Source: Nitrospirota bacterium
GTDB taxonomy: Bacteria > Nitrospirota > UBA9217
NCBI GenBank assembly: GCA_029858565.1
Contig: JAOUEV010000001.1
Span: 1-64,000, forward strand
Length of the DNA stretch: 64,000 nucleotides
Reading direction: 5' to 3'
Numbering within the stretch: position 1 is the first letter of the stretch; the number at the start of each line of letters is the position of its first letter. A model generated the notes under the pieces. The model made no database searches. It saw only the letters and a list, made by a program, of their open reading frames with translations, and had not been told where the DNA came from. The translations under genes and the position numbers were made by a program. Below are positions 14,752 through 22,898 of the stretch, one piece after another.

Positions 14752-15147
14752 ATGAGACATGCATGCGCGGGAAGACAATTTGGACGGAATAGCGGCCATC
14801 GGAAAGCTTTGTTGAGAACCCTGGTTCGGGCCCTGCTGAAAAATGAAAAGATCGAAACAACAGTAGCCAAGGCAAAGGAAATCCGTCCATTGGCTGAGAA
14901 AATGATCACCTTGGCCAAACGGGGTGATTTGCACGCACGTCGCCAGGCGATGAGCTTTATTCAGGATGAGGCTGTTGTCAGCGGTCTGTTCGCTGATATT
15001 GCACCGCGCTTTGGTGATCGTAAGGGTGGCTATACGCGAATTGTGCCAACGCGGCAGCGTATGGGAGATGCTGCGGAAATGGCAGTCATTGAGTTGGTTG
15101 AGCGCTCTAAACAGGCCAGTTCTGCAGCAGTAAGTGGAAAAGCTTAG
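14752..15147 (+). CDS. rplQ: 50S ribosomal protein L17
   Basis: MRH...[22 protein letters not shown]. Confidence 0.98.
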
Positions 15148-15241
15148 TAGATTAGCAAGTTATAGAGCGACGCGAAATTTTCTGTTAGCGGCTATCTTAC
15201 GAAGAATTGTCAGTAGCTAAGTAGGACACTATACTGCTTAC

Positions 15242-15273
15242 AAAGGCAAGGGAATTTCCCTTGCCTTTTTTTA
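15242..15273 (+). terminator. Rho-independent terminator ending the ribosomal superoperon
   Basis: AAAGGCAAGGGAA-T-TTCCCTTGCCTTT followed by a T tract. Confidence 0.9.
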
Positions 15274-15836
15274 TTGCGTTTACAGCGGCAGGTGAATATG
15301 TTAATATCATACTGAAATTTCAAGGTAATCCATGAATAAACCCAGCAGATATATGCTCACCGACCTGATATATTCTGATCGTAAAACGGCAGTGTTACGC
15401 CGGTGCCGGATTGATCGCAGTTTTCTTTTCCCCTTGATGACTTATATTCTAACGTCTTTCCTTCTCGTAATTCCTGACCTTGAAGTGCACCTAGTGTCCG
15501 CTCGACATCGTGATTTTCTGAATTGTATTGCTTTCCGTGGTAACTTCTTCTTGTTTCCTGATTTCGGCGATGACATAGGACCTTTTTAGATGTGTTGTAT
15601 AGCATGATATCCATACTACTCTTTATCATAAGTGTCCGTTATGCAATTATCACTGAACATAACAGATGGTTGCGGAGTTTTTATCGATGGTGATCGCACT
15701 ATCGGATTATGTGTTAGCAGCGCTCACAATACCTTATTGGATATGAAGGAACTCTATGCAGGGGGTACAGATTTGATTAAACGTCCTCAAGTCGCGAAGA
15801 GTCCATTCGGAGCGCATGAGAAAGGGGCGACCATTG

Positions 15837-16769
15837 ATGCCAAATAACCGTATTGGTCTGCTCGTAACTGTGCTTATGGTAATTTTATTCCTGTTCCCTC
15901 TCAATGGATGCAAACATCGAGATCGGGAAGTCCGAGAAAAAAAAATATTTGGACAGCAGGAACTCCTTATTGGACTCATTCCGGAGCAGAATATTTTCCG
16001 ACAGCGTGAACGGTATCTTGTCTTACGGAAATATCTTTCCGAGAGGCTGGGAATCAATGTGACTTTCACCAGCCTCAGCAGATATGGGAACATTATTGAA
16101 CGATTTACAGCGGAAAAAATGGATGGAGCGTTTTTCGGAAGCTTTACCTACGCGTTAGCGCACCGACAACTTGACGTGGAGCCGATTGTCCGCCCGGTCA
16201 ACCTTGATGGCACCTCTACTTACCACGGATACATTTTTACCAGAAAAGATAGCGGAATTAAAACGGTAGGAGATATGAAAGGGAAGCGTTTCGCTTTTGT
16301 GGAACATGCGACAACCGCAGGCTATCTCTTTCCTTTGGCATATTTTCGGGATAGTGGTATCAAGGATATCAAACAATATCTGGGGCAGAGCTTTTTCTCC
16401 GGTAGCCATGACGCGGCAATTCTTGCCGTGTTAAACAAAGAGGCTGACATTGGCGCTGCGAAAAACACGATTTACGACCAGCTCGCTTCGGAGAATAGAC
16501 GGGTGGAGCAGGAACTGATCGTTTTAGCAGCATCGGGAGTCGTTCCCCAGAATAGCCTGGCCGTTCGAAAGGACCTTGATCCGGAGCTCAAGAAGGAACT
16601 TAAACGCATACTTCTTGAAATGGATGAAAACTCCGAGGGAATGGATGTCCTTCAACGATTTGGAGCGCGTAATTTTATGGAAACTACGGACAAAGACTAT
16701 GCTTACGTTTATACATTGGCTAGTCACGTAGGCATCGATCTTAAAACGTACCGATACACGAACCAGTAA
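15837..16769 (+). CDS. PhnD/PtxB-family (phosphate/phosphite/phosphonate-type) substrate-binding lipoprotein
   Basis: Lipobox LNGC; IGLIPEQN, KGKRFAFVEHATTAGYLFP, FSGSHDAAILAV; no ABC permease or ATPase nearby. Confidence 0.85.
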   Translation: MPNNRIGLLVTVLMVILFLFPLNGCKHRDREVREKKIFGQQELLIGLIPEQNIFRQRERYLVLRKYLSERLGINVTFTSLSRYGNIIERFTAEKMDGAFFGSFTYALAHRQLDVEPIVRPVNLDGTSTYHGYIFTRKDSGIKTVGDMKGKRFAFVEHATTAGYLFPLAYFRDSGIKDIKQYLGQSFFSGSHDAAILAVLNKEADIGAAKNTIYDQLASENRRVEQELIVLAASGVVPQNSLAVRKDLDPELKKELKRILLEMDENSEGMDVLQRFGARNFMETTDKDYAYVYTLASHVGIDLKTYRYTNQ

Positions 16770-16781
16770 TACCTATATATC

Positions 16782-18227
16782 ATGAAGAAACGAATCCTCA
16801 TAAGCTTTGGCTTGCTGTTGTCGATTTTCCTGGTGGGGAGCTGTGTCGCCTGGATCTATATCAGCAGAACCACTGAGCGGATGGACAAACTGATCCTCTT
16901 GCATCAGGTCGAAATATTGCGAGAAGACTTGATCATCCACATCCAGCAGGTACAATCGCAGATCGCGCGGAGCCGAGTCCGCAGCGGTGGGGATGTTGAT
17001 GTGCTGATTGCGCATGTACAGGAAATGGACAAGGTCATGGATTCCTGCGTCGGTTGCCATCATACGCCTGAGTTGATGCAGGGGCTTTATTCTATGCGTG
17101 ATATGGCAAATGACTATAAAAGCGCAATAAGTATGTTGGTAACTGCTTCATCCAATCCTTCTCATATTGTTCAACTGGAACAGAGGGCTCAGTACCTCGG
17201 CCAGGAACTTATTTCCATGACTCAGGGGATGGCTTTTACCGCGAACATCCATTTGCAGCAAAAAACACAGGATACCATGGCTACTATTCGTGAAGTGCGG
17301 AACGTGCTAATAGTAACACTGCTCGTCGCATTGCTGCTTGCTGTCGTGACAGTAATGCTCCTGGTCAAACAACTTCACCGCCGGCTGCAAAATCTTCTTG
17401 ATGCCACGCGACGAATCGCTCGTGGAGATCTACAGCACAGGGTTGATATCGAAGGCGCAACAGGCGACGAATTTGGCGAGCTCGCGACCTCGTTCAATTC
17501 CATGACGCATGATTTGCAAAGGTCGCAAAGGCAGTTGCTGCAAAGTGCCAAGCTTGCCGCTGTCGGTGAGCTTGCGACAAACATTGCTTATGAAGTGAAT
17601 AATCCGCTGACCGGAGTTCTCGGATATGCGGGGCTTCTTCTAAAGGCAGACGATGTCCCCGCGGATAAGAAAGAGCATTTGCGCACGATCGAGCGGGAAA
17701 CACTCCGGGCACGTGAAATACTCAGAAATCTGCTGGATTTCTCTCGGAGAAAACCGCCTCAACTATCCAGTATTCGGATTTCCAGCGTCATTGAGGATAC
17801 CTTGGCGCTGGTTCGCGGGCAGGCAAAACTGGCTAATGTCGAGATCAAGACCGAGTGCTCAGAACAGTTGCCGGAGGTGGCTGTCGATATTGATGAAATG
17901 CGTCAGGTATTTCTTAATTTGATCAATAACGCATTCCACTCTATGCCTTCCGGGGGAATTCTTACCATCGCATGCTCAAATGAAATCAATCATTATGAGC
18001 GGCATATGATATCGATTAGCCTCACAGATACTGGTCTGGGGATAGCAGAAGAGCATTTGGATAAGATCTTTGATCCAATTTTTACTTCTCGGCCTGATGG
18101 TGAATGGACAGGATTGGGGCTGTCGATCAGTTTCATGATCGTGCAGAATCACGGCGGGAAGATAGAAGTAGAAAGTTCCGTCGGCGAGGGCTCAACGTTC
18201 CGAGTACTGCTGCCTACACGAGGATAG
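16782..18227 (+). CDS. Membrane sensor histidine-kinase-like protein: 2 TM, periplasmic CxxCH, HAMP, HisKA with His->Tyr, HATPase_c
   Basis: SCVGCHH; HAMP IARGDL..DEFGELATSFNSM; H-box IAYEVNNPL; N-box NLINNA; DTGLGI; TGLGLS. Confidence 0.9.
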   Translation: MKKRILISFGLLLSIFLVGSCVAWIYISRTTERMDKLILLHQVEILREDLIIHIQQVQSQIARSRVRSGGDVDVLIAHVQEMDKVMDSCVGCHHTPELMQGLYSMRDMANDYKSAISMLVTASSNPSHIVQLEQRAQYLGQELISMTQGMAFTANIHLQQKTQDTMATIREVRNVLIVTLLVALLLAVVTVMLLVKQLHRRLQNLLDATRRIARGDLQHRVDIEGATGDEFGELATSFNSMTHDLQRSQRQLLQSAKLAAVGELATNIAYEVNNPLTGVLGYAGLLLKADDVPADKKEHLRTIERETLRAREILRNLLDFSRRKPPQLSSIRISSVIEDTLALVRGQAKLANVEIKTECSEQLPEVAVDIDEMRQVFLNLINNAFHSMPSGGILTIACSNEINHYERHMISISLTDTGLGIAEEHLDKIFDPIFTSRPDGEWTGLGLSISFMIVQNHGGKIEVESSVGEGSTFRVLLPTRG

Positions 18228-18263: not shown

Positions 18264-19772
18264 ATGGCTGGAGAGCGGATACTAATTGTCGACGATGAGG
18301 AGATGATCCGTGATCTATGTGCTCATATCCTGATATCCGAAGGGTATAACGTTGTCGTCGCATCGTCGGGCGACGCGGCACTGGAGGAACTTGCTCGAAC
18401 GCCAGTTGACCTGGTGATCTCGGATATCAAAATGCCCGGCATGGACGGACTTGAACTGTTCGAGCGGGTCAAGAAACAAAAAACGGACATGGTGACCATC
18501 TTTATCACAGGTCACGGTACACTTGATACAGCGATCGAATCCATCATGCGCGGCGTTGAAGGGTTCGTGTTGAAGCCCTTTACCCAGGAGGAATTGGTCA
18601 CTGCCGTAGACCGCGCCGTTACCCGTTCACGCCTTCAAAAGGAAAATATCCGACTCAAGGCGCTGATCCCGCTATTTGAGATCAGCAAATTGCAGGTAAC
18701 AGAAATAGATCTGGCGCATCTATTCAGGATCATTACCGAGGTGCTTGTTCAGGAGTTTTCCGCTGATCGGGTCTCCCTGATGCTTGTGGACCATTCGGCG
18801 GGAAAGCTCATCATTCGCGCGTCTCACGGATTGCCGACCGACTTGGCACTTCAAGCGACTCGTAATTTCGGGGAAGGGATATCCGGACTGGTGCTCGATC
18901 GCAGAAGTCCGATTATAATCACAAAAGGAAAACATGATGATCCCGAGGTAAGGGCGGCCCTGAACACTGACGATATGCCATTATCGTCGATATCCGTCCC
19001 CCTAATCGGCAAGGATAAACCATTGGGTGTGTTGAACGTAAGCAAATTTACCGATCCTGAATTTACCACAAGCGATCTTCAGATCATCTCGATTCTTGCG
19101 AGCCAGGTTGTGGCTGCGATGGAGAATGCATCCCTTTATGAGGGGCTGCGGGATAGTTATTTCCGAACGGTACAAGCGCTGGTAGCGGCAGTAGAAGCCA
19201 AAGACCCCTATACTCGCTGGCACTCGACCAACGTAGCGAAGTACGCTGTTGCGATCGGACGCGAGATGGGTCTTACGCCTTCACAGCTTGAGGAGATTCA
19301 TATCGCATCGATACTTCATGACGTTGGCAAGATAGGGATCAGCGAACGCATCATCGGGAAGCCTGACCGATTGAGCCGTGAAGAGTTTGATATCATGAAA
19401 GATCATCCGGCGCATGGGATGAGGATACTTGAACCGATCGGTTTCGCTGTATCGATCATCAATGCTATTTATCAACATCATGAACGATATGATGGGAAGG
19501 GATATCCTCAGGGGCTCGCAGGCGATGGGATATCGTTATCCGCCCGTATCCTGAATGTCGCTGATACGATCGATGCTATGGTGTCTGAGCGCCCCTATCG
19601 CGGTTCCATAGCGATCGGAGCAGTGCTAGCCGAACTGGAGAAAGAATCAGGATTTCAGTTTGATCCTCTGATTGCTCAAAGTGCACGTAATCTTATTGAA
19701 AAGGGACTTCTCCGGTTAGGCATGCAAACATACGCCCAGCATGCCGCCGGACGTTCAGGACAAAATCCATGA
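18264..19772 (+). CDS. Response regulator REC-GAF-HD-GYP (putative c-di-GMP phosphodiesterase)
   Basis: ILIVDDE...SDIKMPGMDG...KPF; GAF-like SVPLIG..GVLNV; EAKDPYT, LHDVGKIG, HHERYDGKGYP. Confidence 0.9.
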   Translation: MAGERILIVDDEEMIRDLCAHILISEGYNVVVASSGDAALEELARTPVDLVISDIKMPGMDGLELFERVKKQKTDMVTIFITGHGTLDTAIESIMRGVEGFVLKPFTQEELVTAVDRAVTRSRLQKENIRLKALIPLFEISKLQVTEIDLAHLFRIITEVLVQEFSADRVSLMLVDHSAGKLIIRASHGLPTDLALQATRNFGEGISGLVLDRRSPIIITKGKHDDPEVRAALNTDDMPLSSISVPLIGKDKPLGVLNVSKFTDPEFTTSDLQIISILASQVVAAMENASLYEGLRDSYFRTVQALVAAVEAKDPYTRWHSTNVAKYAVAIGREMGLTPSQLEEIHIASILHDVGKIGISERIIGKPDRLSREEFDIMKDHPAHGMRILEPIGFAVSIINAIYQHHERYDGKGYPQGLAGDGISLSARILNVADTIDAMVSERPYRGSIAIGAVLAELEKESGFQFDPLIAQSARNLIEKGLLRLGMQTYAQHAAGRSGQNP

Positions 19773-21481
19773 AACGTGTACGGCTGCGCTCCAAATTGGT
19801 CAAACGTCTATCAGCGTCATCAGGCAAGCCGACCGCGGTCCGTCATCTGTTTGACGATCGCGTGGCCGAAGAGAGCGCGCCCGGAAAAGTTGGGGCACTT
19901 GATCCTGTTCGTATCGGTACGGAAGATGAAGTCCTGTATCATCTTGGAAGCCTCTTGGATAGCGTGAAGACCGCGATCATCTCGCTGGATGGAGAAGGAC
20001 GGGTGCGAGTTTTCAATGCTGTGGCGGAGATGCTGTTTAATGTGCCGCGTCAGGCAGTTCTCGGGAAGCCGTTCGGCATTCTTGGGCGCATGGACTATTT
20101 CACCGAAAGCTCTATCCGGGCCCTTTGGGAGCGGCTTGCAGACGCAGTATGGGCAGCAGGTGCCGCACTTGACCTTGAATACGATCTTATTCGGCCAAAA
20201 GGTCAAAAAAGGGTAATTTTGTACAGCGTGTATCCGCTTGGGCGGCTCCCCTGGTCGGTGGGGAACGGTGTTGTGCTCATGCTTGAGGACATAACCCGGA
20301 AGAAGGAGATGGAAGAGCAGATAAGCGATGGTCGTAAGCGACTTCAGACAGTATTCGATGGCATAACCGATGGTATCCAGGTTGTTGACCGGGAATTCAG
20401 GATAACAGCAGTCAACAGGTCCATGACCGCCTTGGTTGGTGGCAATGTAGCAATCGGAAACCGATGCTATCGTTCCTGCGCGTCCAGCACTGAGGTTTGC
20501 GATGAGTGTCCGGCAGTCGAAACATTCCGGTCTGGTCAGCCTGCTTCGGTTGTCAAACGAATTCCCCGAAAGAACAAGTCGTTCTCGAATATTGGCGAAG
20601 ATCGAATTTACGAAATAAGTACATTTCCACTTCTCGACAGAGGAAATCGCGTTCTTCAGGTGGTGGAATATATCAAGGATGTGACCGAGCGGATTCTTTT
20701 GGCAGAGCGGCTGGAGCATTCTCGACGCCTGGCAGCCTTGGGAGAAATGGCCGCCCGGGTAGCGCATGAAGTGCGAAATCCTTTGAACGCGATCACTGGC
20801 GCGGCACATTATTTAGCCAGCGAGTATTCGCAGGACGGTACGATTCAGCAGTTCACAAGCTTGATTAAGCGTCAATCGGACCGTGTCGAGCAAGTCGCTT
20901 CTGATATCCTTCATGCAGCGAGACCGCTCCGGCTTAATCGAACAGCCGTAGATCTCACCGCTGTATTCGAATATGTGTTTACGACGCTTGACCATGCGAT
21001 CAGAGCGCAAGGGATCATCGTGCGGCATTCGTCTATCAAGGAACCGGTCATCATTCAGGCCGATGAGGTTCAGATAGAACAGGCAGCGATAAATATCGTG
21101 AAAAATGCGATAGAGGCAATGCCAGAAGGGGGTGTCCTGGCAGTTGAGACAACGATCTCAGCTGATGGCCGTTGGGGCATTGCTACGGTGGAGGACGACG
21201 GATGCGGAATCCGTCCTGAGGAACGGGAGAAGGTGTTTCAGGCCTTTTATACGACGAAGGCCCAGGGGACCGGGCTTGGTCTTTCGATTGTTGAAGGTGT
21301 TTTGAAGAATCATGGCGGGACCATTGCAATCGAGCAGCCATCGCATGCGGGGACCCGTATCACCATGCGACTTCCTGCAACGACAAACGAAATATCCCCG
21401 ATAGCGGGATCTGAGCATGTTCGTGACGGAATCGTTAGGGTATCCTTCGCGGAGCGCATCCGCTCCCGACGGCCGGCATAA
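19769..21481 (+). CDS. Cytoplasmic PAS-PAS sensor histidine kinase
   Basis: Two PAS-like domains; intact H-box VAHEVRNPL; [26 protein letters not shown]; no TM stretch seen. Confidence 0.9.
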
Positions 21482-21485
21482 CAAT

Positions 21486-22898
21486 ATGAAGCCATCCATT
21501 CTGATAGTAGACGATGAGCCCGATATCGTACTTGTGATGAGCGCGAACCTTCGCAAAGAAGGATATGATGTTGATACAGCGGGAGATGGTCTGGAGGCAC
21601 TCAAGAAGACCGAGGGGCGTGATTTTGACGTCATTATCGTCGACCACCAGATGCCTCATTTGACAGGGATGCAGTTCCTGCAGCGATTAAGGAACAGCGA
21701 TAATGCAGGGAACGGCCGCTCCGAAGTTCCGATCATTCTGATCACCGCCTATGGAACGATCGAGATGGCTGTTCAGGCCATGAAGGACGGCGCTTACAGC
21801 TACCTTACCAAACCTATCCGGTATGAAGAACTGAATCTCCAGGTCAAAAATGCAGTCGAACGCCATCGTCTGTCCCGTGAAGTGCAAAGCTTACGCAACG
21901 AGATGGAAGCGCGATATCGTTTTGGGAATATTATCGGTAGAAATCCCCGCATGCATGAGATCTTCCGCATTATCCCGACCGTGGCGGAAACCGACGCGAC
22001 CGTGCTTATTCATGGAGAGAGCGGGACCGGTAAAGAACTGATCGCTCACGCTATCCACTATAACAGCAGGAGAAAAGATAAGCCCTTTGTGGTAGTCAGC
22101 TGCTCGGCCCTGCCTGAAGCGCTATTGGAGAGCGAATTGTTCGGCCATGAAAAGGGGGCGTTCACCGGAGCGATCCGCCAGCGGATCGGAAGGTTCGAAA
22201 TGGCCGAAGGTGGAACTGTCTTTCTTGATGAAATAGGCGAGATGTCCATGTCGGTCCAGCAAAAACTTCTCCGAGTGCTCCAGGAGCGTGAAATTGAGCG
22301 TGTGGGAGGAAATCAAACGACGAAGGTCGATGTCCGGGTCATCGCAGCAACCCATCGGGATCTTCAGCAAGCCATGGAGGAGCGTATGTTCCGCCAGGAC
22401 CTATTTTACCGGTTGAACGTTGTACCGATCAAGCTTCCCCCATTGCGTGATCGACTGGATGACGTGCCGATGCTCGCTGCACATTTTGTGGATAAATATT
22501 GTGAAAAGAACAATAAGAAACGCAAGACCATCAGTAATGAGGCTCTCACGGCGCTCTGTTCCTACGGTTATCCCGGCAATGTCCGCGAATTAGAGAATAT
22601 CATCGAGCGCGCGGTGATCATGGAAAAAGGTGACGCAATCCTGCGCGGGGATCTGGGATTCCCACCCACGTCTCACAAAGATACCTCTGTGCCGATGGTG
22701 CGAGATCTGAATTCATTCAAAAAAATGAAGGCCGACGTGATCGCTCAGTTCGAGCGGGAATATCTCGGCCAAGTGCTCAAGATCTACAAGGGAAATATGA
22801 GCAGGTCCGCCCAGCATGCGGGGATGAACATAAAGAACTTTCATGAAAAGATGGCCCGTTACGGGATGAAACGAGAGGATTTTAAGGAAGAAGCATGA
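21486..22898 (+). CDS. Sigma54-dependent response regulator (NtrC/AtoC family: REC-AAA+-HTH)
   Basis: [37 protein letters not shown]; start ATG 21486. Confidence 0.95.

Follow-up and report, generated by a model that had tools for sequence, protein, structure and literature searches.

We describe here a gene of a Nitrospirota bacterium (assembly GCA_029858565.1, GTDB lineage UBA9217) whose product is built like a sensor histidine kinase and carries a tyrosine, Tyr270, at the position of the phospho-acceptor histidine. The gene lies at 16782..18227 of the stretch of DNA that was analysed, hereafter the window, which comprises the first 64,000 nucleotides of contig JAOUEV010000001.1; all genes and protein features given below are on its forward strand (+), and coordinates are those of the window. 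We found that Tyr270 is an old, maintained character of a whole clade and that the gene, an intact open reading frame (ORF) of 481 codons, is under purifying selection. The encoded membrane sensor, which we call the Tyr protein, is histidine-kinase-like and lacks the phospho-acceptor His, and it probably modulates rather than drives a signalling pathway.

The substitution is read directly from the window. The codons GCT TAT GAA at 17586-17594, within LATNIAYEVNNPL of the 481-residue ORF, place TAT (17589..17591) at the acceptor position of the H box ELATNIAYEVNNPL, where Tyr270 is followed by Glu271 and Asn274, forming an ExxN motif. Among the 120 best database matches (67-100% identity, the window's own protein counted in), residue 270 is Tyr in 119, Cys in one and His in none, with E271 present in 120/120 and N274 in 118/120. 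Tyr was likewise found in 47/47 of the metagenome loci covering the site, encoded by TAT in 27 and TAC in 20 (49 loci at 55% identity or more were collected, and two leave the site uncovered). As for the bacterial family itself, 35 of the 64 genomes examined carry the gene, 34 of them with Tyr and one, G021, with His (CAT); the codons at the site among 20 genome orthologues were TAC in 11 and TAT in 8. No orthologue was found among 16 genomes from other families of the phylum, the best E-values ranging from 1e-28 to 1e-60. The clade members are labelled Nitrospirota or Nitrospiraceae in the database sources, except for one metagenome-assembled genome labelled Betaproteobacteria.

Since Tyr270 is near-universal in the clade and both synonymous codons are in use, it reflects neither chance nor a sequencing error, and a private mutation at 17589 is ruled out on the same grounds. 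A preliminary description of this DNA, made from the letters alone, had already proposed the exchange of the acceptor His for Tyr in an intact ORF, had argued against a single sequencing error and had suggested aligning orthologues, inspecting the reads at 17589 and estimating selection; the first two proposals stand, and the alignment shows the Tyr kept. The read-level check was possible with contigs only and lends weak support: the one run that matches the entire stretch letter for letter is probably that of the source sample, and in a run from another study (X3) contigs span 17483-17633 with one difference, at a position not given, and 18041-18191 with two differences, one of them at 18161.

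The deviating sequences are few. The His-bearing orthologue of G021 (L011 / L032, G021:C164:7395-8840) is the only one of its kind and is nested within the Tyr clade; its G2 box reads GTGLEM, with the third Gly changed to Glu. A regained His paired with a broken G2 box would fit selection against kinase activity, in one case only. A metagenome protein of 479 residues, P0125, shares the architecture and the CXXCHH motif described below, has Gly for His in its H box ELAGAVSGKLDKPL, shows ruined F and G2 boxes and falls within the Tyr clade at the end of a very long branch. We also considered whether another His of the DHp domain could serve as acceptor; the sole candidate, H298, is Gln or Tyr in relatives, and this possibility was ruled out. 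Outside the clade, P0140, a HAMP-PAS-GAF kinase of 648 residues from a metagenome, carries ELAANIAYEINNPL with the same Tyr substitution in a neighbouring clade. We considered it as a second independent Tyr clade; it is a lone sequence, and with His in all four of its nearest relatives (65-71% identity) a recurrence of the exchange is not established.

The Tyr protein is laid out as a first transmembrane segment, a periplasmic four-helix bundle with the CXXCHH motif, a second transmembrane segment, HAMP, HisKA and HATPase_c. Pfam recognises HAMP (residues 193-246, 17358..17519; PF00672, 51.4 bits), HisKA, that is the DHp domain (residues 262-324, 17565..17753; PF00512, 50.4 bits, cut-off 26.9), and the HATPase_c catalytic and ATP-binding (CA) domain (residues 369-479, 17886..18218; PF02518, 82 bits, cut-off 26.4). 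Pfam found only these three domains, with no PAS domain and no match for residues 1-190. By the standards applied to HisKA kinases, the DHp domain is thus recognised and its phospho-acceptor His is absent.

Selection on the gene was estimated from the ratio of nonsynonymous to synonymous substitution rates (dN/dS), as the preliminary description had suggested. Pairwise dN/dS was 0.08-0.27 where dS was unsaturated, which establishes that the gene is selected. For the DHp domain the values were about 0.03-0.06 in 4/5 informative pairs, the exception (0.42) being the pair that contains G005, while dN of the periplasmic domain was similar to or below that of the whole protein. The window copy is no outlier: at the 201 columns conserved at 95% or more, it departs from the consensus at two, V261 and I433. 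A general decay of this copy following the loss of its partner kinase (see below) was considered and not seen, with only these two private changes.

Two side observations concern individual copies of the gene. The G005 copy (L090, G005:C38:2064-3500) reads YEVSSPL in its H box, HIIDNA in its N box and EGYVTGLGL in its lid and has several changes in DHp helix 1; its DHp dN/dS of 0.42 was obtained against the congener G022, compared with 0.03-0.06 in other pairs. In G046 (L104, G046:C2:161900-163500) the gene is split over three frames, and in G060 (L103, G060:C13:112280-113900) over two; these frame breaks are either real frameshifts or assembly indel errors.

The nucleotide-binding motifs are kept in most of the clade. 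In the window, the N box NLINNA (17916..17933) retains Asn383, found in 117/120 homologues, and the G1 box DTGLG (18027..18041), which supplies the DxGxG motif, retains Asp416, Gly418 and Gly420, each found in 120/120. The F box, ATP lid and G2 box, FDPIFTSRPDGEWTGLGL (18069..18122), hold two residues private to this lineage, namely Ile433 (ATT, 18078-18080) and Trp442 (TGG, 18105-18107), the latter replacing the first G2 glycine, together with the clade-wide Arg437. The same columns hold Phe433 in 119 of the 120 homologues, Gly442 in 108, Gly444 in 119 and Gly446 in 120, and the orthologue consensus is FDPFFTTRxxGxGTGLGL; Ile433 occurs in the window alone and Trp442 in 2/120, the window and its closest homologue P0002. 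The degenerate ATP lid noted in the preliminary description, with its Trp codon at 18105, is therefore present in the window as described but is not a property of the family, whose members keep canonical N, G1 and G2 boxes. At residue 437, R stands in 123/134 Tyr proteins vs K in 127/132 His-bearing relatives, counts that are not phylogenetically independent; by this comparison, Lys437 to Arg is the sole clade-wide change in the lid, and a derived one.

The DHp domain is the best conserved part of the Tyr protein. Over the same six genome pairs, with G008 excluded, identity is 82.9% for DHp and 62.8% for CA, vs 77.1% and 62.6% in the neighbouring bona fide kinase; the inclusion of G008 brings these values to 76.0 and 57.9 vs 78.1 and 61.7. 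A minority of copies show decay: G008 lacks the N and G2 boxes and has His at +4 from the Tyr, G041 has GLDL in its G2 box and Asp at +4, and G021 has GLEM.

To place the Tyr proteins among kinases, 62 kinase cores were used for a quick IQ-TREE tree, with branch support from the Shimodaira-Hasegawa-like approximate likelihood ratio test (SH-aLRT). The Tyr proteins formed one clade (SH-aLRT 100), and its sister was a clade of HAMP-GAF histidine kinases (SH-aLRT 89), hereafter the GAF kinases. Over positions +1 to +19 of DHp helix 1, counted from the His or Tyr, the Tyr protein shares 13-15 of 19 residues with the GAF kinase, against 7-8 of 19 with the PAS-PAS kinase encoded nearby. The CXXCHH bundle and HAMP are common to His-bearing paralogues (30-35% identity) and to P0122 (46% identity), which is the nearest relative of the same architecture and has His at the acceptor site. 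Among PDB sequence matches of the Tyr protein, DivL (4q20) came 11th (E 9e-22), behind ZraS (1e-35), KinB, FixL and others. On the tree and the sequence matches, the Tyr clade thus nests among His-bearing kinases of the same genomes and has no common descent with the alphaproteobacterial DivL, in line with the earlier proposal that its tyrosine evolved independently.

The neighbouring genes suggest which pathway the Tyr protein acts on. Directly downstream lies the gene of a REC-GAF-HD-GYP response regulator of 502 residues (18264..19772; Pfam Response_reg 109 bits, GAF_2 65 bits, HD_5 122 bits), with canonical receiver residues (DD, D53, T, K) and the motif HHERYDGKGYP. This regulator follows the Tyr protein in every locus covering that side, and its receiver phospho-site residues are all kept, also in the two genomes devoid of a GAF kinase. 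We regard the regulator as the likely target of the Tyr protein. Its stop codon is overlapped (ATGA, 19769-19772) by the start of a canonical PAS-PAS-HisKA-HATPase_c kinase with His present (19769..21481), hereafter the PAS kinase. The H box of the latter reads VAHEVRNPL and its lid follows FYTTK.QGTGLGL, as had been stated earlier.

In relatives, the gene order is rpoA, rplQ, GAF kinase, (PhnD-like protein), Tyr protein and REC-GAF-HD-GYP regulator, often followed by the PAS kinase and an NtrC-type regulator. Of the 35 genomes carrying the Tyr-protein gene, 30 have the GAF kinase adjacent to it, three (G011, G051, G058) have it on a different contig or past a contig edge, and two, the genome studied here and G005, lack it. 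The GAF kinase was also found upstream in 35/35 metagenome loci with at least 150 nucleotides of upstream flank. In three family genomes without the Tyr protein, rplQ, the GAF kinase and the REC-GAF-HD-GYP regulator stand side by side, and we therefore read the Tyr protein, usually together with the binding protein, as an insertion into a canonical kinase-regulator pair. Judged by gene order, the Tyr-protein gene is an add-on to an existing pathway.

In the window, the place of the GAF kinase, which has about 700 residues in relatives, is taken by an intergenic stretch of 668 nucleotides between rplQ and the binding-protein gene (15148..15815), where the rplQ terminator hairpin lies at 15242-15268. 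No remnant of the GAF kinase was found in 15100-15900 (best tblastn E 0.4), so that its absence is clean, and no orthologue was found elsewhere in this genome. The only match in 15100-15900 was a run of 70 nucleotides to the post-rplQ region of G001, which is the terminator, and the 668-nucleotide region gave no Rfam match to a known RNA or riboswitch at gathering score (best 26.7 bits vs a cut-off of 56). An independent run yielded contigs that match 15187-16266 at 95-99% identity.

The input side of the Tyr protein is a periplasmic sensor domain (residues 26-175, 16857..17306), predicted by AlphaFold2 as an up-down four-helix bundle between two hydrophobic segments (mean predicted local distance difference test score, pLDDT, 88.5). 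Its best PDB fold match is 4k0d, the Adeh_2942 sensor (TM-score 0.80, root-mean-square deviation 2.3, Foldseek E 2.7e-3); the Foldseek search of this domain returned no match at E 0.001 or better, and an Atlas feature search gave only four-helix-bundle sensor leads. Residues 89-94, CVGCHH (17046..17063), form a CXXCH c-type haem attachment motif followed by a second His, and C89, C92, H93 and H94 are each found in 120/120 homologues. CXXCHH is also invariant in 65/65 aligned sequences that include the His-bearing paralogues. A c-type haem on the periplasmic domain is likely on these grounds. As a side observation, the CXXCHH motif marks out a larger family of putative haem-c sensor kinases, to which the His-bearing paralogues of the same genomes and forms of 600-900 residues also belong.

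The gene just upstream (15816..16769) encodes a PhnD-like periplasmic solute-binding protein of 317 residues (Pfam Phosphonate-bd 217.6 bits; NCBIfam TIGR01098 188.4 bits, cut-off 112), a probable lipoprotein with the lipobox LNGC read from its translation. No ABC transporter genes accompany it. The PhnD-like gene is present in most, not all, Tyr-protein loci and is co-inserted with the Tyr protein in most relatives; its product may assist one of the two membrane sensors as a co-sensor.

Considering the above, we tentatively favour the possibility that the Tyr protein is a partner under signal control, dead as a kinase, which binds to the regulator and either dephosphorylates or holds it. Unable to make phospho-His, it would dock on the REC-GAF-HD-GYP regulator encoded beside it by means of its intact DHp-CA core and lower or hold the phosphorylation state of that regulator, most likely in a phosphatase-only mode. 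The periplasmic bundle, probably with a c-type haem and possibly with the PhnD-like protein, would set the conformation of the core through HAMP. The DHp domain with its Tyr270-Glu-x-x-Asn motif would bind the phosphorylated receiver and promote hydrolysis, and nucleotide bound by the CA domain would act as a cofactor. In most relatives, the neighbouring HAMP-GAF kinase, the nearest relative by kinase core, would supply the phosphate, and this couple of kinase and anti-kinase may integrate two signals to control the hydrolysis of cyclic di-GMP (c-di-GMP). With the GAF kinase lost in the present genome, the donor would be another kinase, the PAS kinase being the nearest candidate, or acetyl phosphate.

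The retention of the ExxN phosphatase motif and of the nucleotide-binding motifs would support such a role, as would the conserved absence of an acceptor His, the purifying selection, the gene order, the kinship with the GAF kinase in core and helix 1, and the intact receiver of the regulator. Passages of PMC3510030 describe the HisKA kinase CrdS, where the H371A exchange abolished kinase activity and left most of the phosphatase activity: CrdA~P showed a half-life of 2.6 min with CrdS H371A, 0.7 min with the wild type and 53.5 min with no kinase. According to the same passages, N375A abolished the phosphatase activity, and the residue equivalent to Glu271 was needed for kinase and not for phosphatase activity.

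Several points weigh against this proposal. Docking and phosphatase activity are deduced from motifs, and the retention of motifs is no proof, because DivL has a similar Tyr H box and no phosphatase activity, and PleC H610A loses its phosphatase activity (as cited in the part of PMC3510030 that we draw on). Asn274 is replaced in 4/35 family genomes (by S, S, D and H) while the Tyr stays. The invariant Glu271 and the kept ATP motifs may fit a still-catalytic enzyme at least as well. The helix-1 motif is found also in P0122 and P0147 and is thus common to a wider subfamily, so it does not single out one regulator; the tree is of the quick kind, with an SH-aLRT of only 89 for the pairing of the Tyr clade with the GAF kinases. 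Finally, in the present genome and in G005 the Tyr protein and the regulator persist in the absence of the GAF kinase, which would leave a pure antagonist with nothing obvious to antagonise.

A rather doubtful, though serious, alternative is that the Tyr protein acts as DivL does, as a non-catalytic regulator whose DHp-CA core binds a partner and exerts an allosteric effect without phosphatase chemistry. The partner could be the phosphorylated regulator or, through heteromeric contact, another kinase, including a hypothetical heterodimer with the GAF kinase. The Tyr is indeed the best-kept feature of the clade, staying in place where the N and G2 boxes (G008), the G2 box (G041) or Asn274 (G005, G008, G041, G061) have changed, and the strong conservation of the DHp domain is what one expects of a binding surface. 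The persistence of the Tyr protein and its regulator in the 2/35 genomes without the GAF kinase would also be understood. In DivL itself the Tyr is important for optimal function, with Y550H causing growth and morphology defects, and DivK~P is bound without turnover (passages of PMC4211667). On the other hand, signalling in DivL runs backwards, into PAS domains in the cytoplasm that contact CckA, whereas the N-terminal part of the Tyr protein is periplasmic and constrained like the rest, which fits an ordinary input domain. Moreover, the ATP-binding motifs are intact in most members, unlike those of DivL or PsmA.

We consider it unlikely that the Tyr protein continues to use ATP, in a division of labour in which the CA domain would transfer the phosphoryl group to Tyr270, making it a tyrosine autokinase of histidine-kinase fold, or, in a heterodimer, in trans to the His of the sister GAF kinase. 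If true, a haem-based periplasmic sensor would control the catalytic half and a GAF sensor the acceptor half. This would explain why Glu271 and the boxes N, G1 and G2 are under as tight a constraint as in a working kinase (Asn383, Asp416, Gly418, Gly420, Gly444 and Gly446 all being kept, that is, the kinase-specific elements except His), why conservation of the CA domain equals that in the neighbouring true kinase, and why Tyr specifically is retained and not any non-His residue (one Cys in 120), the corresponding site of PsmA being variable. It would also account for the loss of the first G2 glycine in both lineages without the GAF kinase: residue 442 is Gly in 54/62 readable loci with an adjacent GAF kinase and in 0/2 genomes without one, with Trp here and Val in G005, independent losses in different genera. 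However, these are two events among related, non-independent sequences, and the G2 box is damaged in three genomes that keep the partner (G008, G021, G041), so that lid decay as a result of partner loss is a hint only. The transfer of a phosphoryl group from phospho-Tyr to Asp is, besides, energetically unfavourable as a matter of general chemistry. The derived Lys437 to Arg change in the lid of most Tyr proteins may also weigh against continued ATP use, and DivL had no autokinase activity in the work reported in PMC4211667, of which we draw on a part.

Least of all do we credit an artefact or a decaying gene, be it a sequencing error at 17589 or a pseudogene being lost: the two unusual lid residues of the window copy, the disappearance of its partner kinase and the frame breaks in two family genomes would fit, but the Tyr is clade-wide with both codons in use, the ORF is intact, dN/dS is well below 1, the copy is no outlier in private changes and Trp442 is common to P0002.

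Some further features of the region may be recorded. Downstream of the PAS kinase, and presumably its partner, is a sigma-54-dependent NtrC-type response regulator (21417..22898; Pfam Sigma54_activat 250.7 bits, Response_reg 102 bits). The annotated start of this regulator overlaps the end of the kinase gene (21417-21481); since relatives have 466-469 residues, the true start is probably a Met near 21486. G005 (L090) has independently lost both the GAF kinase and the binding protein, and no PAS kinase was found in the 1.5 kb downstream of its locus that were examined. In G058, rplQ and the GAF kinase follow each other on one contig, and the Tyr protein, the regulator and the PAS kinase lie on another (L105 / L106, G058:C55 and G058:C287), with 1 kb of unrelated sequence upstream of the Tyr protein; this layout points to a rearrangement or insertion between the GAF kinase and the Tyr protein.

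Known sensors offer partial parallels for the input domain. Periplasmic sensing is familiar from Tar/NarX-type sensors and from binding-protein-assisted sensors such as TorT/TorS. Like the TorT/TorS type, the Tyr protein has a separate periplasmic binding protein encoded beside it, and their interaction here is putative. The predicted periplasmic fold resembles that of Adeh_2942 (4k0d); this sensor is haem-free as far as the passages of PMC3831638 go, where 'cxxch' occurs 0 times and none of the haem passages shown concerns Adeh_2942, whereas the domain of the Tyr protein has its invariant CXXCHH.

With regard to the core, kinase-negative, phosphatase-positive laboratory mutants such as CrdS H371A, and bifunctional HisKA kinases in general, share the H-box type (H/Y-E-[IV]-x-N-P), in which, according to passages of PMC3510030, the Asn at +4 is the phosphatase residue. 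The CrdS mutants derive from working kinases, in contrast to the Tyr clade, a natural long-lived lineage known here from its sequences. The Streptomyces histidine pseudokinase PsmA is likewise a conserved histidine-kinase-like protein without the catalytic His; as described in parts of PMC12963549, its site is variable (E, D, Q, V, Y), it has no D/ExxT/N motif and its ATP motifs are degenerate. The Tyr protein, with a near-invariant Tyr and with ExxN and ATP motifs kept, does not belong to this type.

DivL of Caulobacter crescentus (PDB 4q20) comes closest with respect to the acceptor site. In the passages of PMC4211667 on which we rely, DivL has HisKA and HATPase_c domains with Tyr at the acceptor position, followed by an acidic residue and a T/N motif; its Tyr is both conserved and relevant to function, and DivL acts in a multi-kinase network, a logic common to the Tyr protein. 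According to the same passages, DivL binds nucleotide poorly (57 uM for TNP-ATP) and has neither kinase nor phosphatase activity. The label 'DivL-like' given in the preliminary description is thus apt for the analogous Tyr and not for the architecture, ancestry, neighbours or state of the ATP site. The regulatory part of DivL consists of multiple PAS domains in the cytoplasm, that of the Tyr protein of a periplasmic CXXCHH four-helix bundle and HAMP. The weak nucleotide binding of DivL contrasts with the mostly canonical ATP motifs of the Tyr clade, the window copy having Trp at the first G2 Gly. The partners of DivL are the single-domain regulator DivK and CckA, while the Tyr protein neighbours the REC-GAF-HD-GYP regulator, the PAS kinase, the NtrC-type regulator and, in relatives, the sister GAF kinase.

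A literature search, which had subscription journals largely outside its reach, returned DivL, PsmA and a few passing mentions, and no description of the Tyr clade. Bacterial pseudokinases derived from histidine kinases are few in this literature, and among them DivL is alone in being both well studied and conserved for Tyr at the His position. All the parts are small soluble domains amenable to expression, and natural controls exist in the His revertant, in the copies with a decayed CA domain and in the genomes without the partner kinase. As everything a kinase needs except the His appears to be kept, the clade offers a clean system to ask what the Tyr does, be it as part of a phosphatase-only switch, of a sensor of the phosphorylated regulator or of tyrosine phosphorylation. 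It also illustrates how multi-kinase networks may arise by duplication followed by loss of the acceptor. Beside DivL, the Tyr clade would therefore represent a second, independent and much simpler natural case of Tyr for His: one small membrane sensor, its gene inserted between those of a canonical kinase and of a c-di-GMP phosphodiesterase regulator that it would control, and its sequence apparently descended from the core of that very kinase.

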